Of a DNA stretch of 64,000 nucleotides, positions 12,007 to 64,000 are shown piece by piece; position 1 is the stretch's first letter, and each line of letters begins with the position of its first letter. Location: NCBI GenBank assembly GCA_964512915.1, contig CAZEKJ010000004.1, positions 41,347-105,346 of the forward strand, written 5' to 3'. The position numbers and the translations under genes were made by a program. This DNA comes from an uncultured Porphyromonadaceae bacterium. GTDB lineage: Bacteria; Bacteroidota; Bacteroidia; Bacteroidales; UBA12481. The notes beneath the pieces were generated by a model. That model was not told the origin of the DNA. It saw nothing but the letters and a program-made list of their open reading frames with translations, and searched no databases.

Positions 12007-12020
12007 ACCCCCATTTCATG

Positions 12021-12070
12021 AATCGTGACGCGTGATGCGTGATGCGTGAAGCGAAAAAAAATCGTGACAG
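12021..12070. repeat. CGTGANS heptamer array plus A-tract
   Basis: cgtgacg cgtgatg cgtgatg cgtgaag cg aaaaaaaa tcgtgacagg. Confidence 0.9.
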
Positions 12071-16737: not shown

Positions 16738-16743
16738 TTGTGT

Positions 16744-16762
16744 GGCGGACCCGTGGTCCGCC
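16744..16762. repeat. GGACC-CGT-GGTCC-type mini-hairpin
   Basis: ggcggacc-cgt-ggtccgcc, a perfect 8-bp stem. Confidence 0.85.
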
Positions 16763-16775
16763 CGGTATTGGGGCT

Positions 16776-17018
16776 GGGACAAAATGATAGTCACCCTCGG
16801 AGTCTGCTACAAATTGCCACTAGCTTTAGCTAGTGGTTTATGTTGATTCACAGTATTTTATGGGCTTAAGCCCAATTTTTATCTCCTGAATTTACCCAAT
16901 CAATCATCAGGAACAGAGTTGGCCTAAAGGCCTCAATGTTCTATTTATCAACGCATTCCACTAGCTAAAGCTAGTGGCAACTGGTAGTGGGCTCCAAGGG
17001 TCACTATCATTTTGTCCC
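16776..17018. other. 243-nt multi-stem structured element (candidate MITE or structured RNA)
   Basis: Terminal 21-nt inverted repeat gggacaaaatgatagtcaccc / gggtcactatcattttgtccc (1 mismatch). Internal mirrored hairpins ccactagc-ttta-gctagtgg (16817-16836) and ccactagc-taaa-gctagtgg (16968-16987). Central palindromes gggcttaagccc (16862-16873) and ggcc-taaa-ggcc (16921-16932). Confidence 0.8.
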
Positions 17019-17071
17019 ATCCATGTTTTGTCCCCCTCCAACATATAGAAGCTCCTCCCAACCCTCAATAT

Positions 17072-17119: not shown

Positions 17120-19356
17120 TTCATTGAAATTCTCAGCTCCCCGCCAGCCGTGATTTCCTGATGTGTGATGTACATCCGATCGAGTGGTTTGTCATTCAAG
17201 GTGATACTTTTAATATAGAAATTCTGCGGTGTAAGGTTTTCGGCCGTTACCGTGAATTTCTTGTCGCCCGGCAGGTTGATGCTCACTTTGCTGAACGACG
17301 GGGTGCCGATCTGGTAAATTCCGTTGGCGGGGTTCATCGGGTAAAAGCCCATGGCGCTGAACACGTACCAGGCCGACATGGCGCCGCAGTCTTCATTGCC
17401 GCACAGGCCATCGGGCTGGTCGGTATAAAGGGTGGTGCAGATCCGATGGACGATCTCCTGGGTTTTTTCCGGTGCACCGGCGAGGTTATACAGATATGCC
17501 ACATGGTGGCTGGGCTCATTGCCCTGTGCATACTGGCCCACCATGCCGGAAATATCGGGAGAGGCATTGGCGCCTTCTACCTTGGCGGTGGTATTGAACA
17601 ACGAATCGAGCCGGGCCACGAACCGGTCCCGTCCCCCCATCAGGCTGATCAGGTCATCGGGATCCTGGGGAACAAACCAGGTGTACTGCCAGGAGTTGCC
17701 TTCGGTAAAATCGTGCACATCGTGACTGCTGTAAAGCGGATTAAAATTCTGCCGCCAGCTGCCATCAGACATACGGCCGCGCATAAACCGGGTTTCCGGA
17801 TCGAATACATTCCGATAGTTCTTCGACCGGGTCATGAAGTACTGGTAATCTTCTTCCTTTCCGAGTTTCTTTGCCATCTGCGCGATACACCAGTCGTCAT
17901 AGGCATATTCCAGAGTCTGGGATACCGACTGGTTCTCCAGGTCGGCGGGAAGGTACCCGAAAGCCTTGTAGTTTTTAAGTCCGCGCCCGTCATCCAAGGC
18001 ACTCTTCTTCATATCGGAATAAGCCTTCTCATAATCAAAAGGAAATCCCTTGAGAGCTGCATCCACGATAACCGGAATGGCGTGATAACCAATCATGCAA
18101 TTTGTTTCGCATCCCTCCAGGGTCCAGACCGGCAGGAGTCCGCTTTCATCGGCATGGGCCAGCATGGCCTTTATCAGGTCCGGAATACGCTCGGGCTGAA
18201 CCAGGGTAAACAGCGGGTGTGCCGAACGGAAAGTATCCCACAGGGAGTAGACGGTATAGTTATTCCAGCCATCGGCCTGTTTAACCGTCCGTGCGCTGTC
18301 GCTGCCCCGGTACCTGCCGTCAGTATCAGAAAAAAGTGACGGGGCAATCATTGAGTGATAAAGCGCTGTATAAAAGACAGTCTTGAGCCTATTATCCGAT
18401 GTACTGGCTTCGATTTTACCTAATTCCTGATTCCACTTTTCCCGTGCAGCCTTCTTTACTTTATCGAATTTCCACTCGGAATTCTCAGTTCTCAAATTCG
18501 CCAAAGCTCCCTGCTCATCCACCGGAGAGATTCCCACTTTCATCAGCAGTTCGCCTCCTTTGCCAAAGGAGAGGATTGCCTCAGTATATTTTCCGCTCAC
18601 GTTCCTCATTCCGGGGTTCTCGAGTCCGGTTTTATATAGCATAAAAGATGAAATCGGCCGGTTGAAGACGGCTGCAAACCAAACCTGCTGATTGTTGGCC
18701 CACCCTTTGGATTTGCGGTATCCGGTTATCAGGGTATCGTTTTCAACCCTGATAAAGGTGGCAGCAGGGGCATCCCAGTTAATGGCAAAACCCAGGTCGA
18801 GCATGAGGTTGGCCGCCTCTCCCTCGGGATACCGGTACCGGTGCATGGCTGTCCGCTCCGTGGCGGTAAGTTCAACTTTAATGGGATTCTGACGGGTTTC
18901 GGCATCCCGCAGGGTGACCCTGTAATAACCGGGCGAAGCCGATTCATCATCATGGGAGAACACTGCCTTGAACCGCTGGTGAAACTCTTTTCCGCCATGG
19001 TATTCTGAAGCCGGGAGGTTCCGGGTGGTGGGCTGGAACAATATATCAGCCAGGTCTCCGATACCCGTACCGCTAAGATGCTTATGGGAGAAGCCCACGA
19101 TTATCGAATCGGAATAGTTATACCCCGAACACCAGTCCCATCCGTTTGTTCCATTATCAGGGCTCACCTGAACCATGCCAAAGGGGAGTACAGCGCCCGG
19201 AAAGGTATGGCCGTGGGCGGCGGTTCCGATGAAGGGGTTTACGTATTTTGAATAATCTTCCTGGACGGTATCGGAACAAGATGTGAGGAGGAAGGCGAAA
19301 GGAAAAAGGCGAAAGGCGAAAGAAAGACTTAAGACAAAAGACTTTAAAGAGTTCAT
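17116..19356 (-). CDS. GH92 alpha-mannosidase
   Basis: 746 aa. Canonical GH92 N-terminus VNPFIGTAAHGHTFPGAVLPFGMVQVSPDN, with full-length similarity to alpha-1,2-mannosidases. Residues 11-22 of the signal peptide are encoded by a heptamer repeat arm. Confidence 0.9.
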   Translation of the reverse strand: MNSLKSFVLSLSFAFRLFPFAFLLTSCSDTVQEDYSKYVNPFIGTAAHGHTFPGAVLPFGMVQVSPDNGTNGWDWCSGYNYSDSIIVGFSHKHLSGTGIGDLADILFQPTTRNLPASEYHGGKEFHQRFKAVFSHDDESASPGYYRVTLRDAETRQNPIKVELTATERTAMHRYRYPEGEAANLMLDLGFAINWDAPAATFIRVENDTLITGYRKSKGWANNQQVWFAAVFNRPISSFMLYKTGLENPGMRNVSGKYTEAILSFGKGGELLMKVGISPVDEQGALANLRTENSEWKFDKVKKAAREKWNQELGKIEASTSDNRLKTVFYTALYHSMIAPSLFSDTDGRYRGSDSARTVKQADGWNNYTVYSLWDTFRSAHPLFTLVQPERIPDLIKAMLAHADESGLLPVWTLEGCETNCMIGYHAIPVIVDAALKGFPFDYEKAYSDMKKSALDDGRGLKNYKAFGYLPADLENQSVSQTLEYAYDDWCIAQMAKKLGKEEDYQYFMTRSKNYRNVFDPETRFMRGRMSDGSWRQNFNPLYSSHDVHDFTEGNSWQYTWFVPQDPDDLISLMGGRDRFVARLDSLFNTTAKVEGANASPDISGMVGQYAQGNEPSHHVAYLYNLAGAPEKTQEIVHRICTTLYTDQPDGLCGNEDCGAMSAWYVFSAMGFYPMNPANGIYQIGTPSFSKVSINLPGDKKFTVTAENLTPQNFYIKSITLNDKPLDRMYITHQEITAGGELRISMK

Positions 19357-19460
19357 GGGTGATGGGTTTTATCAATGATTACAAATATACACCCAAAGCC
19401 CTCTTTATAACTTAAGATCTTAACTCTTTCTTTCGCCTTTCGCCTTTCGCCTTTCGCCTT
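19292..19460. repeat. Hairpin element with AAGGCGA heptamer arms enclosing the GH92 start codon
   Basis: Left arm 19292-19326 (aaggcgaaaggaaaaaggcgaaaggcgaaagaaag). Right arm 19427-19460 (ctttctttcgcctttcgcctttcgcctttcgcct). About 100-nt core with cttaag motifs and the GH92 ATG (19356-19354). Confidence 0.9.
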
Positions 19461-20434
19461 TATTTCTTCCCTTTTGCAAACAGATCCCACGCCAGCGAGC
19501 TGGCCCCGAGCACCGCGGAATTCTTGCTATTGAGCCCTGAGGGCAGGAGTTTGACTTTACCCTTATAGATAAACAGCAGGTTATCTTCAAATGCGCGGAG
19601 TGTTGGTTCCATAAGGAGTCCCTTTGCCAGGGTGAGCCCGCCGAAAAGAAAAATAGCTTCGGGGTTGGTATGGGCGACTACATCGGCCAGCTTCAGTCCG
19701 AGCATTTCACCTGTGTGCTCAAAAGCGCGGATAGCCAGAATGTCACCACGCTCAGCTGCTTCTGCAATATTCAGGGAGGTCATCTGATTGAAGCTAAGGT
19801 CCCTCAGTTCCGAGGGTTCAAGGGAGTCCGACATGATTTTGAAAAGGGTGCGCTTAAGACCGGTCGCTGACACGTATGTTTCGAGGCAGCCCATTCGTCC
19901 GCATCCGCACTCACGGTTGGTACGGCCCGGCCGTACAATGGTGTGCCCCACTTCGCCGGCGAAACCGTCCTGACCATAGACCAGTTTTCCGTCAATCACA
20001 ATGCCGGATCCGACCCCGGTACCGAGTGTAATGACCACGAAATTCTTCATCCCCTGTGCCGCTCCGTAAACCATTTCGCCCACTGCCGCAGCATTGGCGT
20101 CGTTGGTTACCAGCACCGGCCAGTCGGTATGCTCATGAATAAGATCTGCCAGCGGGGTTATTCCCTTCCACGCCAGGTCGGCCGGATGTTCAATGGTTCC
20201 CTTGTTGATGTTCCCCATCGGTGCCCCGATGCCTATGCCAATGACCTCAAGCGGTTCCGCTACTTTCTTTTGAAGCATTTTTACTTTCTCCCACATGGCT
20301 GCAACAAAAACTTCCGGTTCCGCAAAATTCACGGTAGAAATCCTGTCTTCTGCCAAAAAATGTCCATGGGAATCCACAAAAGCAAAGTCGGTGTTAGTGC
20401 CGCCGATATCAATGCCGAGCGCAACTTTTTTCAT
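19460..20434 (-). CDS. ROK family sugar kinase (glucokinase-like)
   Basis: 324 aa. DIGGTNTDFA ATP-binding N-terminus and the ROK zinc motif CGCGRMGCLETYVS. Confidence 0.85.
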   Translation of the reverse strand: MKKVALGIDIGGTNTDFAFVDSHGHFLAEDRISTVNFAEPEVFVAAMWEKVKMLQKKVAEPLEVIGIGIGAPMGNINKGTIEHPADLAWKGITPLADLIHEHTDWPVLVTNDANAAAVGEMVYGAAQGMKNFVVITLGTGVGSGIVIDGKLVYGQDGFAGEVGHTIVRPGRTNRECGCGRMGCLETYVSATGLKRTLFKIMSDSLEPSELRDLSFNQMTSLNIAEAAERGDILAIRAFEHTGEMLGLKLADVVAHTNPEAIFLFGGLTLAKGLLMEPTLRAFEDNLLFIYKGKVKLLPSGLNSKNSAVLGASSLAWDLFAKGKK

Positions 20435-24251: not shown

Positions 24252-24260
24252 GATTCAATT

Positions 24261-24318
24261 AACCGGTAACCGGCAACGGGTAACCGGCAACCAGTTTTAA
24301 CCTGTAACCAGTAACAAG
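24261..24318. repeat. RGYAACY heptamer array
   Basis: aaccggtaaccggcaacgggtaaccggcaaccag...aacctgtaaccagtaacaag, between the NrfD-cyt c stop and the DoxX start. Confidence 0.9.
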
Positions 24319-27807: not shown

Positions 27808-27925
27808 TGGGTTTCGGGTATCAGGTATCGGGTTTGGGGTTTGGGGTTTGAGGTTTGGGGTTTGAGGTTTGAGGTTTGGGGTTTATTTGAGATTTGTTTT
27901 TTGAGGTTTGAGATTTGAAAATACA
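27808..27925. repeat. G/T-rich GGTTTGR/GGGGTTT array between coxIII and coxIV
   Basis: gggtttggggtttggggtttgaggtttggggtttgaggtttgaggtttggggttt... Four GGGG runs lie within 27830-27884 on the coding (+) strand. Confidence 0.9.
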
Positions 27926-30007: not shown

Positions 30008-30021
30008 CTTACTGCCTGTAA

Positions 30022-30068
30022 GGGCGACCTGCGGTCGCCCATTTAAACCGGGCGACCGCAGGTCGCCC
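30022..30068. terminator. Two copies of the GGGCGACC-TGC-GGTCGCCC hairpin in opposite orientation between convergent genes
   Basis: 30022-30040 (+ sense, after ctaB, followed by attta). 30050-30068 (minus sense, after the SIS gene, followed by ggttt on the minus strand). Confidence 0.45.
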
Positions 30069-30079
30069 CTACTGGGACG

Positions 30080-31109: not shown

Positions 31110-31266
31110 GGCCTCCCTGCGGTCGGCTAACAGGCCCTTCGGGCTAAAAGGGGCTTCGCCCTAACAGGCATTTGGCAATTTCTCTATTAGCGCGAAGCGC
31201 CTGTTAGGAGCGCAGCGACCTCTTAGGAGCGAAGCGACCTATTAGCGAGCGCAGCGAGCCTATTAT
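31110..31266. repeat. Modular linker-plus-mini-hairpin element, copy 1
   Basis: Left half: cctccctgcggtcggc-taacagg-cccttcgggc-taaaagg-ggcttcgccc-taacagg. Right half: tattag-cgcgaagcgc-ctgttagg-agcgcagcga-cctcttagg-agcgaagcga-cctattag-cgagcgcagcgag-cctatta. Confidence 0.9.
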
Positions 31267-33234: not shown

Positions 33235-33404
33235 CTAAAAGGCTCGGCTTTAGCCTCGCTAAAAGGTCGCTGCGCTCCTAAAAGGGGCTGAAGCCCTAAC
33301 TCGCACGACGGTTGCCTCTCTATTAGCGCGAAGCGCCTGTTAGCGACCGCAGGGAGCCTTTTAGCGAGGCGTTAGCCGAGCCTCTTAGGAGTGAAGCGAC
33401 CTGT
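33235..33404. repeat. Modular linker-plus-mini-hairpin element, copy 2
   Basis: ctaaaagg-ctcggctttagcctcgc-taaaagg-tcgctgcgctc-ctaaaagg-ggctgaagccc-taac ... tattag-cgcgaagcgc-ctgttag-cgaccgcagggag-ccttttag-cgaggcgttagccgag-cctcttagg-agtgaagcga-cctgtt. Confidence 0.9.
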
Positions 33405-36623: not shown

Positions 36624-36658
36624 TCGGCATGTATTAATAATTTTGTACCTTTTTATAT

Positions 36659-36705
36659 CGTGAACCGTGAAGCGTGAAGCGTGAAGCGTGAACCGTGAAC
36701 CGAGA
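36659..36705. repeat. CGTGANS heptamer array x6
   Basis: cgtgaac cgtgaag cgtgaag cgtgaag cgtgaac cgtgaac cgaga. Confidence 0.95.
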
Positions 36706-36708
36706 ATC

Positions 36709-36757
36709 AGCAACTGGTAACCGGTAACTGGTAACCGGTAACTGGTAACCGGCACCC
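36709..36757. repeat. RGYAACY heptamer array x7
   Basis: agcaact ggtaacc ggtaact ggtaacc ggtaact ggtaacc ggcaccc, ending at the flippase stop. Confidence 0.95.
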
Positions 36758-41079: not shown

Positions 41080-41260
41080 CAGGTCGCTGCGCTCGCTAAA
41101 AGGCCTCCCTGCGGTCGGCTAATAGGCCCTTCGGGCTAATAGGGGCTTCGCCCTAACAGGCAATTGTGTTCATGCTCTATTAGCCCGAAGGGCCTATTAG
41201 CCGACCGCAGGGAGGCCTCTTAGCGAGGCGCCAGCCGATCCTCTTAGGAGCGCAGCGACC
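41077..41260. repeat. Modular linker-plus-mini-hairpin element, copy 3 (best long hairpin)
   Basis: taacagg-tcgctgcgctc-gctaaaagg-cctccctgcggtcggc-taatagg-cccttcgggc-taatagg-ggcttcgccc-taacagg ... tattag-cccgaagggc-ctattag-ccgaccgcagggagg-cctcttag-cgaggcgccagccgatc-ctcttagg-agcgcagcga. Three module pairs are exactly complementary. The first TAA is the GT4 stop. Confidence 0.9.
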
Positions 41261-43640: not shown

Positions 43641-43826
43641 AAACAGGTCGCTGCGCTCCTAAAAGGCCTCCCTGCGGTCGGCTAAAAGGCTCCCTTCGGT
43701 CGCTAACAGGCGCTTCGCGCTAATAACGCTTTATAGCTATTGATTGTTAGGGCGAAACCCCTTTTAGCCGACCGCAGGGAGGCCTTTTAGGAGCGCAGCG
43801 ACCTGTTACCGAGCGAAGCGAGGACA
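43638..43826. repeat. Modular linker-plus-mini-hairpin element, copy 4
   Basis: aaacagg-tcgctgcgctc-ctaaaagg-cctccctgcggtcggc-taaaagg-ctcccttcggtcgc-taacagg-cgcttcgcgc ... ttag-ggcgaaacccc-ttttag-ccgaccgcagggagg-ccttttagg-agcgcagcga-cctgtta-ccgagcgaagcgagg. Fills the whole convergent spacer. Confidence 0.9.
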
Positions 43827-44921: not shown

Positions 44922-45080
44922 GTTACTGGTTAAGATCGGTTGCCGGTTGCCGGTTGCCAGTTGCCGGTTGGGCCAGAACTAGTTTCCAATAATAATGAAT
45001 AACCTGAAATTTCGGTCCTGGCTCAAAAAACTGGTAACCGGCAACCGGCAACCGGTAACTGCTAATAACCAACCAGTAAC
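44922..45080. repeat. 159-bp hairpin element with GGTTGCC / GGCAACC heptamer arms in the corA-typA divergent spacer
   Basis: Outer gttactggtt (44922-44931) pairs with aaccagtaac (45071-45080). ggttgccggttgccggttgccagttgccggttgggccag faces ctggc...ctggtaaccggcaaccggcaaccggtaac. About 40-nt AT-rich loop. Confidence 0.9.
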
Positions 45081-46903: not shown

Positions 46904-46906
46904 TAA

Positions 46907-47036
46907 GGGGCAGGAGGGCATTCCTTAGGGCAGGAGGGCAAAAGGGCAGGAGGGCAGGAAGTAAAGGTCAAATCTTAAAACTTAAAGTCTTAAGCCTTTA
47001 CTTTCTGCCCTCCTGCCCTTTCTGCCCTTCTGCCCT
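46907..47036. repeat. Hairpin element with GGGCAGGA/GGCAGAA arms
   Basis: ...tagggcaggagggcaaaagggcaggagggcaggaagtaaagg (to 46967) faces cctttactttctgccctcctgccctttctgcccttctgcccta (46994-47036). The core contains cttaaaacttaaagtcttaag. The right arm includes the stop of ORF 47035. Confidence 0.9.
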
Positions 47037-48951
47037 AATAAATCACCATCTGCCTGGTCTGGTTGAGCGAACCGGCTTTAAGGGTGTAATAATAAACGCC
47101 AGATTCGAGGCCTGAGGCATCCAGATTAAGAATATGTTTTCCTGCAGGCCTGAATCCTTCACGTAAAACCTTCACCTTGCGTCCGGTGAGGTCCATAATC
47201 TCAAAGTTTACGTCCGTTCCGTTTACCAGTTCATAGGCAATATCCGTTGATCCGTTGAAAGGGTTCGGAAAGTTCTGCCCAAGTGAGGCGTTTGAAATCA
47301 GGGGATCAATACCGTCGATCAGGTTACTGTGGTCGTTCAGGTTCAGCCGGCACATCAGGTTTCGTCTTCCTGAGAAAGCACCCATGCCTTCCTCAGTATT
47401 TCCGTCATAAATACCAATGGTTGTTGGAGCAATCATTTTCAGCGTGCGGTCGGTTCCGATTTTCAACCCTTTGGCCCTTCTGGTCAGATAATCCGTATGC
47501 ATGTCCCATTGCGAAATACCTGCATAGACCAGATCACCGGCCTTGAGGAACTCAGTTTCGCCGTCCTTGCTGAAAGGCATGGTGATCCAGGTATTGAACA
47601 TAGAGGAATCCAGGGTCATCATATCCGTAACCAGTACTTTAACCGGGAATAGATCATCCCCCTCCTGTGGTTTCAGCCAGAGCTGGAACTGAAATTCAAT
47701 CAGGCCGTCGGCCAGGCCGCCCATGATGTAGGTTGATATGGAGCTGACCTCGCAATCCTTGTAAATCGGCAGGATCGATCCGGTAAAATAATCTTCGCAG
47801 GAGAGCTTGTCAATCGGGCCATACCGTTCAAAAAGGTAGGACCAGGCAAGGTCGGGTGAATCATCTGAAGTGGAATAGATACTGTCGTTCACATGAAAGA
47901 TGAATTCCGATTTATTATTCTCCGGGGTCTGTTCGTTCATGCCGGTCTTGAAATCATAGGTCACTTTATAATGACCAAACTCCTCGGGAATAAACTTGTC
48001 GGTGATCTTGAGCGTATCCAGATATCCGGTGGCCAGATCAATGGTTTCAGTAGTTTTGTGCCAGATCTGCTGGTTGTTTTTGGTGATTGTGACATCCATG
48101 TAAACATCTTCCTGATCATATTCCCCGAAATTAAGCACACTGGATTCCCAGTTGAAGAGGCCGAGAGTTCCGTTAAGCTGGCTTTTCGGAATCATGTTAA
48201 AAGGGGTCATCGGGGTTTCCTGATCGCCGTTGTCCCATCCTGCTGTAAAATGCTTCAGCCGCAGGTCATAATCCCAGGCTTCTGCCAGCTGAAAATCATC
48301 CAACACCCAGAAGTACCATTGGGTATTTCCATAATGCAGCTGGATAATAACATCCGGCTGACCGGCAGCGATCTCGGAGATGTTGGCTTCAAAAACAACT
48401 GGCTTACCAGGGGCAGCATCATTCGGGCGGTCCTTGTGCTGAACGCCGAAACCGACGTTATAAATCGCCCAGCGGGTGCCGCCGTCGACCGATACCTTCA
48501 ACTCCTGCAATCCGGGGCCCCCGTTCATGAAATGTGTCTCATAACGGACCACAACGGTACCGTGTGCACTGCAGTTGAAATGGGGAAATTCGATGGTGTT
48601 GTTGACCACCGTTGCAGGATCCTTGAATTCGTTGTAAACTGCCAGAGGGATCCCGAGATAACCGTTCCGGCCGGAGGTTGATTCAAATGGCGGTTCCTGG
48701 GCAAACTGTGCCCTGATACTGTCATAGGGCATCCACTTAAAATTATAACCAATGTCGTCCGGATCGATCAGTTTATATCCATCCGGCATTTTCCAGCCCT
48801 TCGGATCTGTGGGATCGCCCCAGTCAAAATCTTCATAGAAAAAAACCTGCCCGTTGCCTTTCAGGGAAGGGGGGACAGTTTTAGTCTGGGCATTCATTGT
48901 CATCAGCCCGGCCAGGGCGAGAAACATCAGAATAAGGGTAAATTTTCTCAT
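47035..48951 (-). CDS. Secreted hypothetical protein with T9SS type A C-terminal sorting domain
   Basis: 638 aa. Signal peptide, and a C-terminal LGQNFPNPFNGSTDIAYEL...GVYYYTLKAG pattern typical of Por/T9SS CTDs. Confidence 0.65.
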   Translation of the reverse strand: MRKFTLILMFLALAGLMTMNAQTKTVPPSLKGNGQVFFYEDFDWGDPTDPKGWKMPDGYKLIDPDDIGYNFKWMPYDSIRAQFAQEPPFESTSGRNGYLGIPLAVYNEFKDPATVVNNTIEFPHFNCSAHGTVVVRYETHFMNGGPGLQELKVSVDGGTRWAIYNVGFGVQHKDRPNDAAPGKPVVFEANISEIAAGQPDVIIQLHYGNTQWYFWVLDDFQLAEAWDYDLRLKHFTAGWDNGDQETPMTPFNMIPKSQLNGTLGLFNWESSVLNFGEYDQEDVYMDVTITKNNQQIWHKTTETIDLATGYLDTLKITDKFIPEEFGHYKVTYDFKTGMNEQTPENNKSEFIFHVNDSIYSTSDDSPDLAWSYLFERYGPIDKLSCEDYFTGSILPIYKDCEVSSISTYIMGGLADGLIEFQFQLWLKPQEGDDLFPVKVLVTDMMTLDSSMFNTWITMPFSKDGETEFLKAGDLVYAGISQWDMHTDYLTRRAKGLKIGTDRTLKMIAPTTIGIYDGNTEEGMGAFSGRRNLMCRLNLNDHSNLIDGIDPLISNASLGQNFPNPFNGSTDIAYELVNGTDVNFEIMDLTGRKVKVLREGFRPAGKHILNLDASGLESGVYYYTLKAGSLNQTRQMVIY

Positions 48952-49002
48952 AGGAAGGGGTGTTGGTTAATAGGGAGGAAAGATAAAAGATTTTTCTATT
49001 CA

Positions 49003-49200
49003 TTGCAGGCGCAGGGGGTGGAACAAAAGAGGGCAGAAGGGCAGGAGGGCAGAAGGGCAAAAAGTAAAGGATAAAAATAATAGGTAACAAAATACTAGTA
49101 TGTTTATAATGTGCGCCTTAAACTACTTATCACTTTTCACTTTCCTTTCTGCCCTTCTGCCCTCCTGCCCTTCTGCCCTCTTTTGTCCCACCCCCTGCAA
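49003..49200. repeat. Hairpin element with 49-bp near-perfect GGGCAGAA/GGGCAGGA arms
   Basis: 49011-49059 (gcagggggtggaacaaaagagggcagaagggcaggagggcagaagggca) is the reverse complement of 49150-49198 with one mismatch. 90-nt AT-rich spacer. Sits in a divergent promoter region. Confidence 0.95.
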
Positions 49201-49256
49201 CCATTGCACGTTACGTTAAAATTCCGTAACATCAGGTTATAAAATCTTTCCAACCT

Positions 49257-51761: not shown

Positions 51762-53606
51762 ATCCTTGTACTAACCATCCTGGTGACCGATTTCTTTCTC
51801 GGCCCACAGGCTCTTGCGCAAAGCTCGCCCAAGCCCTACGGTCCGGTCCCAAGTTCAGCCCAGCTGAAATGGCACCAGACCGAACTGTACGGACTGATTC
51901 ATTTCTCCACCACCACGTATGCCAATCTGGAGTGGGGCTACGGCAATGAACCGGCCAAAAACTTCAATCCGAAGGAATTCGATGCCGACCAGATTGCGGC
52001 GGCTGCCAAGGCTGGCGGACTGCGCGGACTCATCCTGGTAACCAAGCACCACTGCGGGTTCTGCCTCTGGCCCTCGAAATACAACGACACCTATTCGGTG
52101 AAAAACTCGCCGTGGAAAGACGGTCAGGGCGACATGGTAAAAGACTACGCAGATGCCTGCAAAAAGTACGGGCTGAAGTTCGGCGTCTACCTTTCGCCGT
52201 GGGACCGCAACCACAAAGACTACGGCAAGGCGGAGTACATCACCTACTATATGAACCAGTTACGCGAATTGCTCACCAACTATGGCCCGATATATGAGGT
52301 TTGGCTCGACGGCGCCAACGGGGGCGATGGCTGGTATGGCGGGGCGAAAGAGAAGCGCACCATCGATAAAAACAACTACTATCCGTTTGAAAAGATCTTT
52401 GAACTGGTGTACGAGCTCCAGCCGAATGCTATCGTGTTCAGCGATATCGGTCCCGGTGCCCGCTGGGTGGGCAATGAATCGGGCTGGGCCAACGATCCCT
52501 GCTGGGCCACCTTCACGCCCAAAAACCGGGATGGCGAAAACCTGAAGCCGGTGCCGGGGAACACGAAATATGAAGAGGGCCTGAGCGGTCATCGGGATGG
52601 AAAATTCTGGATCCCGGCCGAGAGTGATTTCCCGCTGCGACAGGGCTGGTTCTATCATCCCGATCAGAAGCCGAGAACGCCGGAAAATCTCTGGAAAACC
52701 TACCTCGAATCGGTGGGCCGGGGCACGGCCATGAATATCGGGCTGGCGCCGGATACCCGCGGCCTCCTCTGCGATGCTGACGTGAAATCGCTGGAAGGGT
52801 TTGGCCGGATACTGGAGGGTACCTTTAAAACCAACCTGGCAAAGCAGGCCAAAATCACCGCGGGAAATATCAGGAATAACAGCATAACCTATAATGTTGA
52901 CCGGCTGGTGGATGACAGCAACGACACCTATTGGGCCACCGACGATATCGTGACCAACTGCGGCGTGGTGTTTGATTTTGACGAAGCGGTTACCTTCAAC
53001 GTGGTGCGGTTTCGCGAATATCTGCCTTTGGGACAGCGGGTTGATGGCTGGTCGGTGGACACCTGGACCGGCACCGGCTGGAAAGAGCTGGCCTCCGGAC
53101 AATCCATCGGGGCCTGCCGGATTGTGGAGACCGATCCGGTAAAAACCACAAAAATCAGGTTCCGGATCACCCATTCACCGGTTTGTCCGGCCATTTCCGA
53201 TTTTGGACTGTATCTTAAATCATCAGGCCTAAATCCCGATGATGAGGCCAAAGCAGAGATCCTGAAATCCATGCAGCAGTCGCAGGACTACTGGAACTCC
53301 GGCAATCTCGACGGGTTCATGCACAACTACTGGCACTCCGATTCCCTCAAGTTCGTGGGCAAAACCGGCATCACTTACGGCTGGGATGCAACGCTGAAAC
53401 GCTACAAGGCCAGCTATCCCGATAAATCCAGGCAGGGTACATTAAAATTCGACTACCTCCATCTCGATAAAATAAGTGACGATGGATGGTATCAGGTTGG
53501 CAAATACACACTTACCCGCGACAAAGACACCTCATCAGGCCATTTCATGCTAATTTGGAGGAAAATCGACGGGCAGTGGCGGATTGTGGCGGATCATTCG
53601 TCGTGA
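51729..53606 (+). CDS. GH29 alpha-L-fucosidase with F5/8 type C-like and C-terminal DUF4440/SnoaL-like domains
   Basis: ORF 51675-53606; ATG at 51729 gives the signal peptide MLKIRFSPVRFILVLTILV. Catalytic region SSAQLKWHQTELYGLIHF...TKHHCGFCLWPS. C-terminal YWNSGNLDGFM...WRKIDGQWRIVADH. Confidence 0.8.
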   Translation: MLKIRFSPVRFILVLTILVTDFFLGPQALAQSSPKPYGPVPSSAQLKWHQTELYGLIHFSTTTYANLEWGYGNEPAKNFNPKEFDADQIAAAAKAGGLRGLILVTKHHCGFCLWPSKYNDTYSVKNSPWKDGQGDMVKDYADACKKYGLKFGVYLSPWDRNHKDYGKAEYITYYMNQLRELLTNYGPIYEVWLDGANGGDGWYGGAKEKRTIDKNNYYPFEKIFELVYELQPNAIVFSDIGPGARWVGNESGWANDPCWATFTPKNRDGENLKPVPGNTKYEEGLSGHRDGKFWIPAESDFPLRQGWFYHPDQKPRTPENLWKTYLESVGRGTAMNIGLAPDTRGLLCDADVKSLEGFGRILEGTFKTNLAKQAKITAGNIRNNSITYNVDRLVDDSNDTYWATDDIVTNCGVVFDFDEAVTFNVVRFREYLPLGQRVDGWSVDTWTGTGWKELASGQSIGACRIVETDPVKTTKIRFRITHSPVCPAISDFGLYLKSSGLNPDDEAKAEILKSMQQSQDYWNSGNLDGFMHNYWHSDSLKFVGKTGITYGWDATLKRYKASYPDKSRQGTLKFDYLHLDKISDDGWYQVGKYTLTRDKDTSSGHFMLIWRKIDGQWRIVADHSS

Positions 53607-53738
53607 CGACGCAAGCGTGCGCCCGCGTAACGCACCTGTAGGGGCGAACCCGCGGTTCACCCGGGATGGTTCGTGGGGAGTGACCAGTGACCAGTGACCA
53701 GTGACCAGTGACCAGTTCGTGATGCGTGACGCGTGAAG
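53602..53738. repeat. Composite spacer: CGTGA-like tract, GC hairpin, (GTGACCA)x5, CGTGAYG x3
   Basis: 53602-53635 cgtgacgacgcaagcgtgcgcccgcgtaacgcac. 53636-53666 ctgtaggggcgaacccgcggttcacccggg. 53680-53714 five perfect gtgacca. 53718-53738 cgtgatg cgtgacg cgtgaag. Confidence 0.95.
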
Positions 53739-54790: not shown

Positions 54791-54883
54791 GATAGGGTAT
54801 TTCCCTATTTAGATGCTGCCGAGAGCATAGAATGGAGAAAACACCTGGAAAACTTTTGTGCTTTATTAAACCTCCCGACAAAA

Positions 54884-54969
54884 CGTGAGGCGTGACGCGT
54901 GATGCGAAAAACCGGTAACTGGTAACCGGCAACCAGCAACCAGCAACCAGCAACTAGTAACCAGCAACC
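54884..54969. repeat. CGTGANS x3 followed by RGYAACY x8
   Basis: cgtgagg cgtgacg cgtgatg cg aaaaacc, then ggtaact ggtaacc ggcaacc agcaacc agcaacc agcaact agtaacc agcaacc. The last units encode AGY-stop of GH29 (54954). Confidence 0.95.
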
Positions 54970-56414: not shown

Positions 56415-56453
56415 GTTGCTGGTTGCCAGTTGCCGGTTGCCGGTTGCCGGTTT
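56415..56453. repeat. GGTTGCC heptamer array (reverse orientation of the RGYAACY family)
   Basis: gttgct ggttgcc agttgcc ggttgcc ggttgcc ggttt. Inverted relative to 54914-54969 across the GH29 gene. Confidence 0.95.
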
Positions 56454-56505
56454 ATCGGAAAATTGGCATCTTTATAATTCTGATAAACCTATAAAACTGT
56501 TTCCG

Positions 56506-59377: not shown

Positions 59378-59531
59378 AAGGCAGAAGGCAGAGGGCAGAA
59401 GGCAAAAATTAGGACGAAGAAAAATGAAAAAAGAAGGAAACTGCTTCTAATCCAACTTGTTACTTAACTTGATTCTTAAGGATTAAGGACTTAAGACTAA
59501 TTTTTGCCTTCTGCCCTCTGCCCTCTGCCTT
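59378..59531. repeat. Hairpin element (GGCAGAR arms, 35-bp inverted repeat with 1 mismatch), copy A
   Basis: Left arm 59378-59412 aaggcagaaggcagagggcagaaggcaaaaattag. Right arm 59497-59531 is its complement apart from one base. 84-nt core. Confidence 0.95.
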
Positions 59532-59568: not shown

Positions 59569-60696
59569 ATGACCCGCCACGAACGACTTCTTCGATCCCT
59601 CCGCGGCCTCCCGGTCGATCGCCCACCCGTCTGTTTCTACGAAATAAACGGCTACGACGAGCATCCGGAAGATCCTGATCCGTTCAATATTTTCTCCCAT
59701 CCCTCCTGGAAACCTCTAATCTACCTGGCCCGGGAGAAAACCGACCGGATCATCATGCGGGGCGTGGCTTTCAAGGAGATCGCCCCCGACCCGATCGGCC
59801 ACATTGCCGCCGATCAAACCACCCTAAAAAACGGCTCCCGGTACATCCGGCGAACCGTTCATGCGGGCAGGCGCATCCTGACCATGGAGACCCGTCAGGA
59901 TCCGGATATCAACACCATCTGGACCACCGAGCCGCTGCTCAAGGATCTGGATGATCTGGATGCGTTCCTTGAACTCCCCGTTTTCGGTGCCGGTGAAACC
60001 GTGAATGCCATTGAATTCCTTAAAGTTGAAGCCGATATCGGAGATACAGGTTTGGTCATGATCGACACGCCCGATCCGCTTTGCCTGGCTGCACTCCTCT
60101 TCGACATGAGCAATTACACCATGGTTGCCCTCACCGAACCCGAGCGCTTTCATAAATTACTGCAACGGTTCTCCGAGGTTCTCCTTGCCAAAACGGAGGA
60201 AGTTGCAAAACTCCTCCCCGGCCGCCTCTGGCGCATTTACGGTCCGGAGTTCGCCTCCCCGCCCTACCTGCCGCCTTATCTGTTCCGTGAATATGTATCC
60301 CGATATGTTGGCCCGATGATCGACCTGATCCACCAATCGGGCGGGTTTGCCCGGGTTCACTGTCATGGCAACATCCGCGACATCCTCGATGATATTGCAG
60401 CCATGGGTGCCGATGCCATTGACCCGATCGAGCCCCCGCCCCAGGGCGATGTAACGCTAAAATATGTAAGGGAACGCTACGGCGACCGCCTTGTCCTCTT
60501 CGGCAACCTCGAATGTGCCGATCTCGAAAACCTCCCGACTTCCGAATTTGAAAAGAAAATCCGCCAGGCCCTCGACGAAGGCACCGCCGGCTCCGGCCGC
60601 GGCTTCGTACTTATGCCCTCTGCTTCGCCATATGGGAGGGTGCTGGGGGAGCGTGCAATGAGGAACTATGAGGCGATGATCCGGGTAATACAATAA
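59569..60696 (+). CDS. Uroporphyrinogen decarboxylase (URO-D) family protein, MtaA/CmuA-like
   Basis: 375 aa. N-terminal MTRHERLLRSLRGLPVDRPPV and a C-terminal HCHGN...DPIEP pattern typical of the URO-D superfamily. Flanked by two inverted copies of one repeat element. Confidence 0.65.
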   Translation: MTRHERLLRSLRGLPVDRPPVCFYEINGYDEHPEDPDPFNIFSHPSWKPLIYLAREKTDRIIMRGVAFKEIAPDPIGHIAADQTTLKNGSRYIRRTVHAGRRILTMETRQDPDINTIWTTEPLLKDLDDLDAFLELPVFGAGETVNAIEFLKVEADIGDTGLVMIDTPDPLCLAALLFDMSNYTMVALTEPERFHKLLQRFSEVLLAKTEEVAKLLPGRLWRIYGPEFASPPYLPPYLFREYVSRYVGPMIDLIHQSGGFARVHCHGNIRDILDDIAAMGADAIDPIEPPPQGDVTLKYVRERYGDRLVLFGNLECADLENLPTSEFEKKIRQALDEGTAGSGRGFVLMPSASPYGRVLGERAMRNYEAMIRVIQ

Positions 60697-60841
60697 GGCA
60701 GAGGGTAGAAGGCAGAAGGCAGAAATTAGTCTTAAGTCCTTAATCCTTAAGAATCAAGTTAAGTAACAAGTTGGACTAGAAGCAGTTTATTTCTTTTCAC
60801 CTATTTCTTCTTACTAATTTCTGCCTTCTGCCCTCTGCCTT
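60695..60841. repeat. Hairpin element (GGCAGAR arms), copy B, inverted relative to copy A
   Basis: Arms 60695-60729 and 60814-60841. The 84-nt core (60730-60813) is the reverse complement of the copy A core (first 45 nt identical, about 85 percent overall by eye). Confidence 0.95.
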
Positions 60842-60886
60842 GTAAATATCTATATATGTTGTATTTTTACTTCAAATAGCCTTACT

Positions 60887-62386
60887 ATGAAACTGCCCGT
60901 CTCCGTCAATAACCGGCTTTCCATCACCGGCGCCATCGTGGCCAGCATCAGTCTGATGTTCATCATCTTCTTTTTTATCATCAGCCTGTTCTATACCGAA
61001 GGCGGTAACTACCTGGGCCTATTCACCTACATTATCCTTCCGGTATTCCTGATTCTCGGCCTGATCCTGATACCCATCGGGATGGTTGGGAAAATGAAGC
61101 GGATGAAACGAGGTATTGAAGAGGTAAAAGGTAAGCCCTGGATCATAGATTTTACCGATAAACGGCACCGGAATGCCACATTTGTTTTTGCCATGGGTAC
61201 GGTAGTTCTTCTCTTTCTATCGGGGATTGGAAGCTATGAGGCCTTTCATTACAGCGAATCCGTTCAGTTCTGCGGTACAACCTGCCACAAGGTTATGGAG
61301 CCGGAACACACTGCCTATCAGGGATCTGAACACGCCAACGTTGCCTGCGTAGAATGCCATGTTGGCGCCGGCGCCGACTGGTATATCAGATCGAAACTTT
61401 CCGGACTCCGACAGGTTTGGGCGGTTATCACCAATAGTTACCCTCGCCCGATACCTACCCCGATAGTGGATCTGCGGCCTGCGCGGGAAACCTGTGAACA
61501 CTGCCACTGGCCGGCGAAGTTCTATGCGCACAAACTGGTATCAGAGAAACACTATCTGGCCGATTCTGCCAATACCGAGTGGAATATAGACCTTCGGATG
61601 AAAATCGCCGCCTCACACAGCGCCCTGGGAAATACCGGCGGAATCCACTGGCATATCAATCCTGATATTAAAATCGAATACATTGATGCCCTGGGCGACC
61701 GTGAGATGCTTCCGTGGGTCCGTAGTATTAACCTGATCACCGGCGATACCACGATATACATGGATTCCGAGAACCCGGCCAGCGACTCAATCATGCATGC
61801 TGTTGAACCCCGTACCATGGACTGCATGGATTGCCACACACGCCCGTCGCACAAATACCGGACTCCACAAACATTTGTAGATGAAGCGATTGCAGCAGGC
61901 GAGATATCCGTTACCCTGCCGGAAATTAAAAAAATCAGCATGGAAGTCCTGCGCACAGAGTACTTCAACCGCCAGGGCGCCCAGGACACCATCCGCCAAA
62001 CCATCGATGCATTCTACAAGGATACCTATCCCGATATTTATGCCAACCGCAAATCCGACGTGGATCAGGCTATTGCAGGAGTTTTAGCTGGATATGCCAA
62101 AAACATATTCCCCGAAATGAAAGCCAGCTGGGATGCGTACCCTGATCACATCGGACATATTGAATACGGCGGCTGTTTCCGGTGCCACAACGATAAACAT
62201 CAGAGTAAATCGGGTAAAGTAATCTCACGAGACTGCAACCTCTGCCACAACATCATGACTCAGGGGACTCCGCAAAACCTGGAAGTGGCTCCGTTTAATG
62301 GTCAACTGGAATTCAAACACCCCGTTGACATTGAGGATGCATGGAAGGAGATGGCTTGTACGGAGTGCCACAGAAAGCTGTACTAG
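60887..62386 (+). CDS. Membrane-anchored multiheme cytochrome c (NapC/NirT-like N-terminus, seven heme sites)
   Basis: 499 aa with N-terminal TM segments. Six CxxCH sites (CVECH, CEHCH, CMDCH, CFRCH, CNLCH, CTECH) plus one CGTTCH (CX3CH) at the position of the NapC-type FCxxCH. Confidence 0.75.
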   Translation: MKLPVSVNNRLSITGAIVASISLMFIIFFFIISLFYTEGGNYLGLFTYIILPVFLILGLILIPIGMVGKMKRMKRGIEEVKGKPWIIDFTDKRHRNATFVFAMGTVVLLFLSGIGSYEAFHYSESVQFCGTTCHKVMEPEHTAYQGSEHANVACVECHVGAGADWYIRSKLSGLRQVWAVITNSYPRPIPTPIVDLRPARETCEHCHWPAKFYAHKLVSEKHYLADSANTEWNIDLRMKIAASHSALGNTGGIHWHINPDIKIEYIDALGDREMLPWVRSINLITGDTTIYMDSENPASDSIMHAVEPRTMDCMDCHTRPSHKYRTPQTFVDEAIAAGEISVTLPEIKKISMEVLRTEYFNRQGAQDTIRQTIDAFYKDTYPDIYANRKSDVDQAIAGVLAGYAKNIFPEMKASWDAYPDHIGHIEYGGCFRCHNDKHQSKSGKVISRDCNLCHNIMTQGTPQNLEVAPFNGQLEFKHPVDIEDAWKEMACTECHRKLY

Positions 62387-62427
62387 TTGCCAGTTGCCGG
62401 TTACCGGTTACCGGTTGGGCCAGAGCG
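62384..62427. repeat. GGTTRCC heptamer array ending in ccggttgggccaga
   Basis: tagttgccagttgccggttaccggttaccggttgggccagagc. Same terminal motif as 44957-44978. Its first tag is the cytochrome stop codon. Confidence 0.9.
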
Positions 62428-62499
62428 GTCATCCTGACGGAAGTCAGGATCCCCTTGCGGTGCATTGAGGGTTGGGATTCCTGCTTTCGCCGGAATGAC
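62428..62499. repeat. Twin tetraloop hairpins (GGAA / TTTC loops)
   Basis: gtc-atcctgac-ggaa-gtcaggat (62428-62450) and attcctgc-tttc-gccggaat-gac (62477-62499, one mismatch). Confidence 0.85.
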
Positions 62500-62512
62500 A
62501 TTAGTTGCTCCG

Positions 62513-62544
62513 ACTGGTCACTGGTTACTGGTCACTGGTCACTC
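62513..62544. repeat. ACTGGTC heptamer array (reverse of GTGACCA family)
   Basis: actggtc actggtt actggtc actggtc actc. Runs into the stop of the GRE activase gene. Confidence 0.9.
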
Positions 62545-63541: not shown

Positions 63542-63575
63542 ATTAGCACATTAGCACATTAGCATATTAGCACAT
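63542..63575. repeat. 8-mer tandem array (ATTAGCAC) x4
   Basis: attagcac attagcac attagcat attagcac attta. Abuts the GRE stop codon (63576-63578). Confidence 0.95.
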
Positions 63576-64000
63576 TTACAGAATTTCATTCTGCGTACGT
63601 TCGATAACCTCGATCTGAAGATCATCGTTCATGTCGTTGAAATAGTCGCTGTAGCCGGCCATCCGAACGAGGAGATCCTTATACTCATCGGGAGTCTGGC
63701 GGGCGGCCATGAGGGTGGCGGTGTCAACGATGTTGAACTGAACATGGTGCCCGCCGAGGGTGAAATAACTGCGGATCAGCTGACCCAGTTTTGCAATATC
63801 CTGATCGCGTTTCAGCAGGCTCGGCAGGAATCGCAGGTTCAGCAGGGTTCCGCCAGATTTGGTCTGGTCGAGCTTCGAAAGCGACCGTATTACAGCGGTG
63901 GGGCCATGGGTGTCGCAACCGTGCGACGGTGAGGTGCCGTCGGAGATCGATTTTCCGGCCAGCCTGCCGTTCGGCATGGCACCCAGCACCTTGCCGAAAT
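63576..64000 (-). CDS. Glycyl radical enzyme (PFL/glycerol dehydratase family), C-terminal part; 5' end beyond window
   Basis: Glycine-radical motif LLVRMAGYSDYF near the C-terminus. The frame stays open to the right window edge, and the Met at 63989 is internal. Confidence 0.85.
   Translation of the reverse strand, partial: FGKVLGAMPNGRLAGKSISDGTSPSHGCDTHGPTAVIRSLSKLDQTKSGGTLLNLRFLPSLLKRDQDIAKLGQLIRSYFTLGGHHVQFNIVDTATLMAARQTPDEYKDLLVRMAGYSDYFNDMNDDLQIEVIERTQNEIL

Follow-up and report, generated by a model that had tools for sequence, protein, structure and literature searches.

A dispersed hairpin repeat family with arms of short tandem units in uncultured Bacteroidetes genomes

INTRODUCTION

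Eukaryotic foldback (FB) elements, e.g., FB of Drosophila, have long inverted arms that are composed of short tandem subrepeats. In heterocystous cyanobacteria, the short tandemly repeated repetitive (STRR) heptamers form tandem arrays in intergenic regions. Both designs come together in a set of intergenic hairpins found in a 64-kb stretch of contig CAZEKJ010000004.1 (hereafter the window), which is ordinary chromosome of an uncultured Bacteroidales bacterium. Six paired loci, labeled e9, e19, e46, e49, e59, and e60, are considered here, together with the related hairpin or inverted-repeat (IR) elements e44 and T16; L-numbers denote loci from other genomes. They are best read as a bacterial repeat of the foldback type, with STRR-like arrays for arms. 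Both kinds of repeat are known, and a literature search found no described bacterial foldback element with tandem-subrepeat arms.

In architecture, the eukaryotic foldback element is the closest analog, with no homology implied. The hairpins have inverted arms of subrepeats, arms of variable length and a variable center. Drosophila FB and, as described, nematode Tm1 (PMC3169594) have subrepeat arms too, whose length and number of units vary between copies, around a center that varies or is missing. Foldback elements differ in being eukaryotic and far larger, and in having known transposases and target-site duplications (TSDs).

Among bacterial repeats, the miniature transposable elements with inverted repeats (MITEs), such as Correia/NEMIS of Neisseria, the pneumococcal RUP, ERIC and the cyanobacterial Nezha, share with the hairpins a size of 130–290 nt, the lack of coding capacity, IR-bounded ends, multiple copies and an intergenic location beside coding sequences (PMC3733652). 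Their transcripts likewise fold into robust hairpins, and related genomes differ in having or lacking them (PMC3733652). In the family described here, all elements are non-coding and shorter than 300 nt (130–290 nt), lie in spacers where no open reading frame (ORF) fits, and have inverted arms of 23–60 nt that are 82–97% complementary, with dispersed copies that differ in presence. In contrast to bacterial MITEs, the inverted repeats are long (up to about 60 nt) and consist of tandem 7–8-nt units that vary in number and sequence between copies and also between the two arms of a copy, and neither a TSD nor a related transposase was found. Within the Bacteroidales, a ‘minisatellite within a MITE’ has been described for Porphyromonas gingivalis (PMC4596501), which is alike in being a MITE that contains tandem repeats. 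As reported, however, an internal minisatellite of ~22–23 bp lies there between ordinary terminal inverted repeats (TIRs), whereas here the units themselves make up the inverted arms.

Repetitive extragenic palindromic (REP) sequences and REPINs with their RAYT tyrosine transposases are similar in that two inverted modules and a spacer form a hairpin downstream of genes, in their mosaic or nested organization and in the absence of TSDs (PMC3116915, PMC3733652); small hairpins with a GTAG-like tag coexist in the genomes studied here. Unlike REP/REPIN, the arms are not 20–40-bp palindromes tagged with GTAG/CGTC, and the ends are GGGGCTGGGMCAAAAT or bare arrays.

Short tandem heptamer arrays of the STRR/TAACTGA type are known in literature, without an accepted origin or function. 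TAACTGA direct repeats occur in Beggiatoaceae, Cyanobacteria and five Bacteroidetes, where they are intergenic and absent from orthologous spacers of close relatives (PMC4679880). Likenesses include the abundance of intergenic 7-nt arrays, a small repertoire, the proximity to start and stop codons and the lineage specificity (PMC4679880 for TAACTGA), and the window units AACTGGT, TAACCAG, and ACTGGTC resemble STRR/TAACTGA heptamers. The hairpin arms are indeed tandem, intergenic 7-nt units of a recurring repertoire, into which the 8-mer arms of e9, e46, and e49 fit loosely. However, STRR/TAACTGA repeats are direct-repeat arrays, whereas here complementary inverted arrays surround a core and half of the copies use 8-mers.

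A HAIRPIN FAMILY IN SEVERAL BACTEROIDETES GENOMES

The hairpins are confirmed as a real, dispersed and fast-turning-over repeat family in several uncultured Bacteroidetes genomes. The initial annotation of the window had proposed six paired loci with one architecture. All six are real inverted repeats, each of them being recovered by an IR search, which for the five besides e49 covered the whole window (Table 1). For e49, the IR search gives a loop of 70 nt. On reading the sequence, the 49 bp with one mismatch proposed for 49011-49059 against 49150-49198 are correct, the single mismatch in the outer 49 nt being A/G at position 12. From the outside inward, e49 consists of the outer terminus GGGGGTGGAACAAAAG, (GGGCAGRA)x4, AAGTAAAG and a 70-nt AT-rich core, followed by (TTCTGCCC)x4 and the terminus complement; its terminus pair is GGGGGTGGAACAAAAG / CTTTTGTCCCACCCCC.

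To find copies elsewhere, a genome collection was scanned with an arm-only pattern (RGGCARRAGGGCARRARGGCA) that presupposed neither the core nor the second arm. This yielded 115 stretches, and the matches in Bacteroidetes metagenome-assembled genomes (MAGs) come as +/- pairs ~110 nt apart. Paired loci number seven in Loclat_bin-03441, two in AM-2014_bin-1198 and one in one Porphyromonadaceae MAG, and further paired copies were spotted by eye (L023, L072, L118). The MAG copies read GGGG(G)CTGGGCCAAAATA, (GGGCAGRA)n, AAG[GT]AAAG, AT-rich core, CTTTACTT, (TYCTGCCC)n, TTTTGGCCCAGCCCC. A profile hidden Markov model (nhmmer) was built from twelve MAG copies only, with the window copies excluded. Its full-length matches in the window are exactly the six paired loci, which bears out the claim of one family with a common architecture; arm-only matches lie at 1184-1216 and 5719-5752.

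The general order is an outer terminus in some copies (GGGGCTGGGMCAAAAT), 8-mers or 7-mers that make up a purine-rich arm, a junction (AAGTAAAG or AAATTAG), the core and the complement. The arms had been described as heptamer arrays, which is true of e19 (AAGGCGA) and of e59, e60, and the array at 5721 (AAGGCAG), but e9, e46, and e49 use 8-mers (GGGCAGRA). The purine-rich arm is 5′ and the pyrimidine-rich arm 3′ in 20/20 elements examined. This uniform order points to descent from one progenitor architecture, as independent palindromization would not predict it.

Between genomes, it is the arms and the AAGTAAAG junction that are conserved, while the AT-rich cores (27–100 nt) fall into unrelated subfamilies. 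The core motifs agtaaagg and cttaag that had been noted before are concentrated in the elements, which hold 4/4 GACTTAAG, 9/16 CTTAAG and 5/6 AAGTAAAG occurrences of the window; in e9, AAGTAAAG flanks the core on both sides and GACTTAAG lies inside it. Core similarity exists only within subfamilies (e59/e60, the Loclat group, L078/L096). Between e9, e19, e46, and e49, the cores have no significant likeness other than the junction and GACTTAAG motifs, and core homology across arm classes was rejected. e59 and e60 are one element in opposite orientations, with cores that are ~90% identical. This identity and the conserved outer terminus of e49 go beyond the initial annotation.

The terminus is carried by full-length copies including e49. 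Beyond e49, it occurs within the window only at the ends of T16, which has internal mini-hairpins (CCACTAGCTTTAGCTAGTGG, GGGCTTAAGCCC, GGCCTAAAGGCC). As T16 shares the terminus, the latter marks a wider element set than the array-armed hairpins. Conversely, e44 has an equal architecture, built from another heptamer, yet does not match the family profile.

Half elements are found as well. The solo arm that had been noted at 5721-5752 was confirmed as an array (5721-5749) without a partner arm, and L009, L015, and L103 are likewise halved. Copies are also repeatedly nested within other palindromes. The GTCAACCTAAGG IR encloses e9, L023, and L007, the composite of e9 type and outer IR thus being present in Loclat_bin-03441 as well (L023, L007), and AGCCCTGAAA/TTTCAGGGCT encloses L028.

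A known RNA family was ruled out, since Rfam 15 gave 0 matches at the gathering score. A permissive Rfam scan gave only sub-threshold, generic long-hairpin matches to eukaryotic miRNA precursor models, i.e., hairpin noise. A viral vehicle was rejected too, as the six viral contigs inspected hold solo arrays only, without paired arms. In two of the contigs from IMG/VR (L132 672-900, L134 7360-7460), adjacent 6–8-nt arrays were observed (GGCTACA, GGATCAG, GGGCAAG, GGGCAGGA; AAAGGGCT), again without paired arms.

TABLE 1. Positions of hairpin elements, related inverted repeats and arrays in the window.
Feature	Position	Strand	Arms	Basis
e49, full-length element	49011-49198	.	49011-49069/49140-49198, 59 nt, 95% complementary	IR search, RNA fold, profile (E 3e-40), terminus match
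e9, 8-mer-arm element, units GGGCAAGA/GGGCAAAA	9315-9477	.	9317-9342/9445-9470	IR search, sequence, motifs, profile (E 2e-28)
Outer IR around e9, ATCCACCTCAACCCC...CCATAGCCGTCAACCTAAGG; e9 nested within	9258-9542	.	9258-9300/9500-9542, 43 nt, 93% complementary	IR search, homologous composites
e19, 7-mer AAGGCGA arms, GACTTAAG/CTTAAG in core	19286-19474	.	19292-19351/19401-19460, 60 nt, 82% complementary	IR search, motifs, profile (E 3e-6)
e46, 8-mer-arm element, 27-nt loop	46907-47036	.	46941-46967/46995-47021, 27 nt, 96% complementary	IR search, fold, profile (E 2e-25)
e59, 7-mer AAGGCAG arms, AAATTAG junction	59378-59531	+	59378-59412/59497-59531, 35 nt, 97% complementary	IR search, profile (E 1e-12), orthologous-site comparison
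e60, e59 element with core inverted	60695-60841	-	60695-60717/60819-60841, 23 nt, 96% complementary	Core comparison (z 42), sequence, profile (E 2e-9)
Half element, solo purine arm (AGRGGCA units) and AAAATCAG junction, without partner arm	5719-5752	+		Array, profile
Solo arm-type array (CAAGGGCA on - strand), abuts stop codon at 1212	1184-1216	-		Profile (E 0.002), arm only
e44, array arm/AT-rich core/complementary arm built from CGGTTGC heptamer	44927-45075	.		IR search, fold
T16, 255-nt IR element without arrays, outer terminus GGGGCTGGGACAAAAT...ATTTTGTCCCATCC	16770-17024	.	104 nt, 78% complementary	IR search, terminus with 0 mismatches
Array example	2756-2784
Array example	12016-12053
Array example	24260-24292
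Array example	27810-27918
Array example	36657-36752
Array example	53679-53736
Array example	54881-54969
Array example	56415-56452
Array example	62381-62543
Array example	63542-63576

PRESENCE, ABSENCE AND TURNOVER BETWEEN RELATIVES

Copies have been duplicated to new intergenic sites, lost or halved, and nested in other palindromes. As to duplication, L007 and L105 are ~97% identical by eye over ~190 nt including the core, while their flanks are unrelated. Orthologous loci in relatives were fetched through the gene bracketed by e59 and e60, with synteny spanning window 51.6–64 kb. The e59 spacer, from the metallophosphatase gene to URO-D, measures 204 nt in the window, 39 nt in the 92–95% relatives and 11 nt in the 84% relative. 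e59 is missing from the spacer in all of these relatives, the 39-nt spacer holding an unrelated ATTAGC-type repeat. At the e60 site, the 94% relatives have a different small hairpin downstream of URO-D, followed by a decayed solo right arm (TTTGCCTTCTGCCTTCTGTCCTCTGTC) that is orthologous to the e60 right arm; the left arm and the core are missing. Past an extra Fib_succ_major gene in the 94% relative, a second right arm, whose core-edge motifs are of e60 type, is located just upstream of the cytochrome gene. In the 84% relative, a complete e59-type element with 66-nt arms occupies a different spacer (S6), around a nested TGTCATCC hairpin. The S6 spacer of the window has the same nested hairpin, but with non-matching flanking arrays. 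The initial annotation had set presence/absence variation at orthologous spacers beforehand as a test. With e59 absent and e60 half-present in relatives, such variation does exist.

A further member, L078 6715-6972 in Loclat_bin-03441, has a different core (a GC mini-hairpin) and no outer terminus. It is located just upstream of a GH95 orthologue (62% aa identity), matching the position of e49 (window 48952-49256). This shared position could go back to one old insertion in a common ancestor, or the site could have been used more than once.

COMPLEMENTARITY OF THE TWO ARMS

The arms of different copies differ in sequence while each copy has its own matching second arm, from which the initial annotation had concluded that the two arms evolve together. 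This co-evolution is weakly supported. In a gapped arm-versus-arm comparison of 21 elements, the own partner is the best match only where unit classes differ; within the GGGCARRA class, its rank is 1–13 of 21. Pairs were also counted in a 15-element alignment with 27 stem pairs, against 500 shuffles of partners among the elements. Paired cells amount to 93.8%, compared to 91.7 +/- 0.6% with shuffled partners (0/500 shuffles reach the observed value), an effect that is significant against this control but tiny, and double-change cells to 22 versus 13.8 +/- 3.7 expected (14/500 shuffles). As the partner shuffle keeps shared ancestry, co-inheritance of both arms explains most of the pairing excess. 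Most of the ‘different yet complementary’ signal is thus shared low-complexity consensus plus co-inheritance. The mismatches in the same alignment are about equally G.U (33) and A.C-type (~25), which gives no hint that one transcribed strand is under selection, and strand-specific RNA selection was rejected.

What stands of the claim, besides the 22 double changes, are two symmetric changes and the differences between classes. Both arms of e59 have AAGGCAA as their innermost unit, where both arms of e60 and L125 have AAGGCAG, and L125 has AAGGCAT as the outermost unit on either side, giving two clean both-arm changes among three related e59-type elements. The classes GGGCAGRA, AAGGCAG, and AAGGCGA are 1–2 bases per unit apart along both arms, with the GACTTAAG core motif in common, and a further class (GGCRCAA) occurs in the remnant of a relative. 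Symmetric changes and class differences together require arm-to-arm homogenization or selection for pairing. On the other hand, the arms of a single copy may differ in unit number (L007, e60, e46), or by whole units and several transitions (the outer arms of e46, L045, L020, L041).

ORIGIN OF THE ELEMENTS

On balance, and with moderate confidence, the loci are regarded as copies of a non-autonomous, foldback-type dispersed repeat (MITE/REPIN-like) of a clade of uncultured Bacteroidales and some other Bacteroidetes. The likeness to MITEs and REPINs follows from the agreement in size, non-coding nature, inverted ends, dispersal and location, whereas the tests for TSDs and GTAG tags fail. The two arms would be complementary mainly because of a palindromic progenitor and a shared low-complexity consensus. 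Replication slippage, visible in the unequal unit numbers within single copies, would alter the number of units and spread unit variants along an array. The few symmetric differences would come from occasional correction between the arms, in which intramolecular template switching at quasi-palindromes, a mutational mechanism established in bacteria, carries a change from one arm over to the other. Slippage combined with such template switching is the simplest account of the arm changes. The elements themselves are probably selfish, or a neutral filler of non-essential spacer parts.

The proposal of a mobile MITE-like element in the initial annotation is backed by dispersal and presence/absence variation, and terminal inverted repeats are represented by the outer terminus conserved in e49, T16, and MAG copies. 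A number of results nevertheless argue against a dispersed repeat of this kind. Firstly, the TSDs expected of a MITE are lacking in the 12-nt flanks of all eight terminus-bearing copies. Secondly, the 64-kb window encodes no transposase, as had been stated and as domain searches of the window proteins confirmed, and no Y1/HUH gene was found among these proteins. Thirdly, no autonomous parent with the shared terminus was recovered from ~95 kb of Loclat loci or from two metagenome scans. All terminus occurrences in the fetched loci are element ends, a T16-specific 22-mer gave 0 matches in the metagenome collection, and the 3 metagenome matches of the general terminus pattern are chance matches inside coding sequence. 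Fourthly, there is no clean empty site with precise junctions, the spacers of the relatives being too diverged for exact insertion boundaries. In addition, the presence of an array at a given spacer is kept while the identity of its units changes, which may represent in-situ rewriting instead of transposition. Lastly, the cores are heterogeneous, and the ‘one element’ may be arms recruited around different centers.

The element ends read GGGGCTGGG... or are bare arrays and have no GTAG/CGTC tag. By inspection, the outer terminus does not match the GGGGWSAS motif of TIRYT-associated TIRs (PMC3733652). A strict search of the window for the GTAG hairpin (REP) pattern gave 0 matches. Small GC-rich hairpins, many of them after GTAG/GTGG (e.g., GTAGCGGAGGACCCGTGGTCCTCC, GTAGGGACGCATATTTGCGTCC, GTAGAGACGCATAATAATGCGTCTCTAC), were nevertheless seen by eye, in the window at ~5807-5836, ~16740-16763, 30015-30075, and ~53625-53665 and in other genomes at L001 11783-11805, L105 ~1190-1215, and L122 ~11113-11142. 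They resemble tagged REPs, and this hints at a RAYT-type enzyme in these genomes.

Fold Stability and Possible Host-Selected Structures

Folding of both strands, which had been suggested as a check, gave structures far more stable than dinucleotide shuffles with RNA and DNA parameters. For e49, the fold is -123.9 kcal/mol as RNA (z -16.7) and -71.4 as DNA (z -15.2). The two strands of e46 fold at -90/-85.5 and those of e60 at -55.5/-60.3 kcal/mol, and e44 at -81.9 kcal/mol (z -11.7). When transcribed, the elements are predicted to form very stable hairpins in 3′ or 5′ untranslated regions, likely with side effects on mRNA stability or termination. One copy, L045, sits between a stop codon and a classical terminator and is therefore transcribed.

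Such stability on both strands would also suit host-selected structures that were formed in place. In that case, STRR-like arrays at gene ends have been shaped into hairpins whose complementarity is kept by selection on the fold, the hairpins acting as bidirectional terminators, 3′-end mRNA stabilizers or protein-binding platforms. This explanation is unlikely, but it has several observations on its side besides the folds and the transcribed L045 copy. Many arrays and arms start 0–15 nt from stop codons, with e46 exactly filling a convergent spacer, and the presence of an array at a spacer is kept between relatives (S3, S6, S7). Moreover, pairing slightly exceeds the shuffled-partner control, and e44 arrives at an equal architecture with a different heptamer, CGGTTGC. 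A role as canonical terminators, however, does not fit the elements. Their stems of 23–60 bp and loops of 27–100 nt without a T-run are not those of intrinsic terminators, in which a U-tract comes after a short GC-rich stem with a loop of 3–8 nt, and a terminator scan found no site at any element within 45–62 kb, its counts equaling the shuffled expectation. Classical terminators or promoters at the elements were therefore rejected. Spacer classification confirmed that the elements occur in divergent, convergent and tandem spacers, as had been claimed, and there is no preference for orientation or context. As many as 3/7 window hairpins are in divergent (promoter) spacers, where termination is not needed, and e59 and e60 have opposite core orientations within one direction of transcription. 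In addition, the balance of G.U and A.C mismatches favors neither strand, and close relatives lack both the element and an equivalent hairpin at orthologous sites. Near-identical copies at unrelated sites indicate duplication and not convergence, and the 5′ purine arm in 20/20 elements fits descent.

Possible Copying of One Arm from the Other

In a stronger version of arm-to-arm correction, every transposition or duplication would remake the second arm from the first, through snap-back synthesis on a half element or through systematic conversion between the arms of a single-stranded hairpin intermediate, with an HUH/Y1-type enzyme as a possible catalyst. Complementarity would then be built in, and arm sequences could drift from copy to copy. 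The initial annotation had listed this possibility, which now looks doubtful. It would account for the half elements (5719-5752, L009, L015, L103, and the right arm in L122), for the copies nested in the loops of other palindromes, for the symmetric element-specific changes in e59 and L125 and for arm classes that differ around a common core motif. The absence of TSDs recalls the single-strand transposition of IS200/IS605 and REP-type elements, and GTAG-tagged REP-like hairpins occur in the same genomes. Freshly copied arms, however, are not expected to differ by whole units and several transitions, as single-copy arms do, and within a class the own partner pairs barely better than shuffled ones. 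Furthermore, the cores of the related copies e59 and e60 are asymmetric, the domain searches of the window found neither a Y1/HUH gene nor a transposase, and the element ends have no GTAG tag.

Finally, a chance juxtaposition of independent low-complexity arrays in inverted orientation within short spacers is effectively refuted. Spacers are array-dense (at least 31/39 arrays in 8.4% of the window) and any GGGCARRA arm pairs ~92% with any complementary arm, but complementarity runs past the arrays into unique junctions (AAGTAAAG/CTTTACTT, AAATTAG/CTAATTT) and outer termini, in addition to which the arm order is the same in 20/20 elements, e59/e60 and the Loclat copies have homologous cores and the profile matches are full-length.

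HOST AND GENOMIC SETTING

The genes of the window include those for a protein with a type IX secretion system (T9SS) tail, DUF4249, GH92/95/125, fucosidases, cytochrome oxidase, BipA, and RNase HII. The closest match of BipA is 92% identical, while Lentimicrobium is at ~75%. A URO-D-like protein with 100% identity is present on an NCBI contig of 177 kb. Five small ORFs have no Pfam match. The T9SS-tail gene (-) and GH95 (+) flank the divergent spacer in which e49 is located, and e46 touches both stops of its convergent spacer (BipA 46903, T9SS gene 47035). In a tandem (-) spacer, the right arm of e19 adjoins the stop of a ROK gene (19460). The left arm of e60 begins on the stop codon of URO-D (TAA directly followed by GGCAG).

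The repeats abut or overlap stop codons, change C-termini and bracket differences in gene content between relatives. The URO-D-like protein ends with ...EAMIRVIQ in the window, where its stop is fused to the e60 arm, and with ...EAMVRRDA in the 94% relative, where the stop is within a hairpin (window 60670-60700 vs. L122 11100-11135). A CGTGAYG array after the fucosidase gene begins in the last codons of the gene (window 53595-53606 vs. L122 940-975). As to gene content, the T9SS-tail gene between e46 and e49 is missing in the 89% relatives, in which GH95 directly follows BipA (L004-L006 11783-11883 vs. window 46904-49256). The 94% relative has an extra Fib_succ_major gene in the e60-equivalent region (window 60697-60886 vs. 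L124 3964-6348), and, at a place with nothing but arrays in the window, additional genes amounting to 3.5 kb (54791-54953 vs. L122 2034-5551).

Mechanically called ORFs with TTG/GTG starts run across arrays at their 5′ ends (56416-56452, 19292-19356, 36657-36755). Since orthologue alignments begin at residue 3–69, the true starts are probably downstream. By inflating such ORFs, the repeats matter for the annotation of uncultured Bacteroidales genomes. They may also break MAG assemblies, as contigs of relatives appear to end or to be gapped nearby.

THE WIDER POPULATION OF SHORT ARRAYS

The hairpin elements are one specialized part of a genome-wide, STRR-like population of 7–8-nt arrays. Arrays were called by Tandem Repeats Finder (period 7 or 8, at least 2.8 copies), which gave 39 in the 64 kb, i.e., 6.1 per 10 kb (examples in Table 1). 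The intergenic 8.4% of the window holds 31 of them, 4 more lie in probably over-extended ORF starts, and ~15 are within 15 nt of a stop codon. Recurring units are CGTGAYG, GGTTRCC/AACCGGT, GGGCAGR(A), AGTGACC/ACTGGTC, and ATTAGCAC, besides GGTTTGA x13, and array units recur across loci and genomes. Per 10 kb, the two loci of the 92–95% relative have 5.7 and 2.7 arrays; the 84% relative has 2.4, and the three BipA-region relatives have 1.4, 0.5, and 0. Between the window and the 92–95% relative, the GTTGCCG array of the S3 spacer is orthologous with a changed copy number, while at S6, S7, and the e59 site the array is replaced by different units at the same spacer. One array begins inside a gene end (CGTCGTGA directly followed by GGCGTGACGCGTGATG). 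A composite [stop]-(RCYGGTT)n-(CRTCACG)n-[60–100 nt]-[start] was observed twice on the - strand (36657-36752, 54881-54969).

It is conceivable, if improbable, that 7–8-nt arrays at the boundaries of genes are written and rewritten by a process not recognized before, which also maintains the match between inverted arrays, the hairpins being its visible product. Compatible with this, units are replaced at a spacer between the 92–95% relatives while the presence of an array persists, the same small set of units turns up in different phyla, and the start of some arrays lies within the stop-codon region. The agent may be a polymerase dedicated to reiterative synthesis or template switching, a nuclease system, or an HUH-type single-strand transposition cycle acting on hairpins. 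The same process could also underlie the cyanobacterial STRR arrays and the TAACTGA repeats of Beggiatoaceae. An array class that is packaged in a well-delimited, multi-copy hairpin with conserved termini offers a tractable handle on STRR/TAACTGA arrays, and in graded relatives (94%, 84%) the orthologous sites show elements gained, lost or halved and units replaced. Provided that the arms homogenize, the family would allow the concerted evolution of inverted tandem arrays, via slippage and quasi-palindrome template switching, to be studied in a bacterial system that occurs naturally.

Other repeats were observed alongside. A second, unrelated family of intergenic hairpins with 17–21-nt units (CTAAAAGGCCTCCCTGCGGTCGG / GGCTAATAGGCCCTTCGGG) has arms of up to 51 nt that are 98–100% complementary, and is located at 31125-31265, 33235-33388, 41092-41227, and 43642-43807. 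A third, small palindromic repeat (TGTCATCCCGAC...GTCGGGATGACA type) occurs at window 2670-2744 and ~62425-62502 and at L125 ~15535-15700; it is nested between arrays at the orthologous S6 spacer in the window and the 84% relative. The palindromic motif AAAGTTG[CG]CAACTTTA(T) lies upstream of genes in several genomes (window ~56455-56480, L122 ~7040-7062, L125 ~7068-7090, L015 ~385-440, L045 ~2385-2410) and is possibly a promoter or operator element. Lastly, a hairpin repeat common to genomes, CTCTGTGGTCCTCTGTGTAA...TTACACAGAGG...CCACAGAGGACCACAGAG, was seen at L020 ~310-380 and at L125 ~6895-6990 and 11165-11200.

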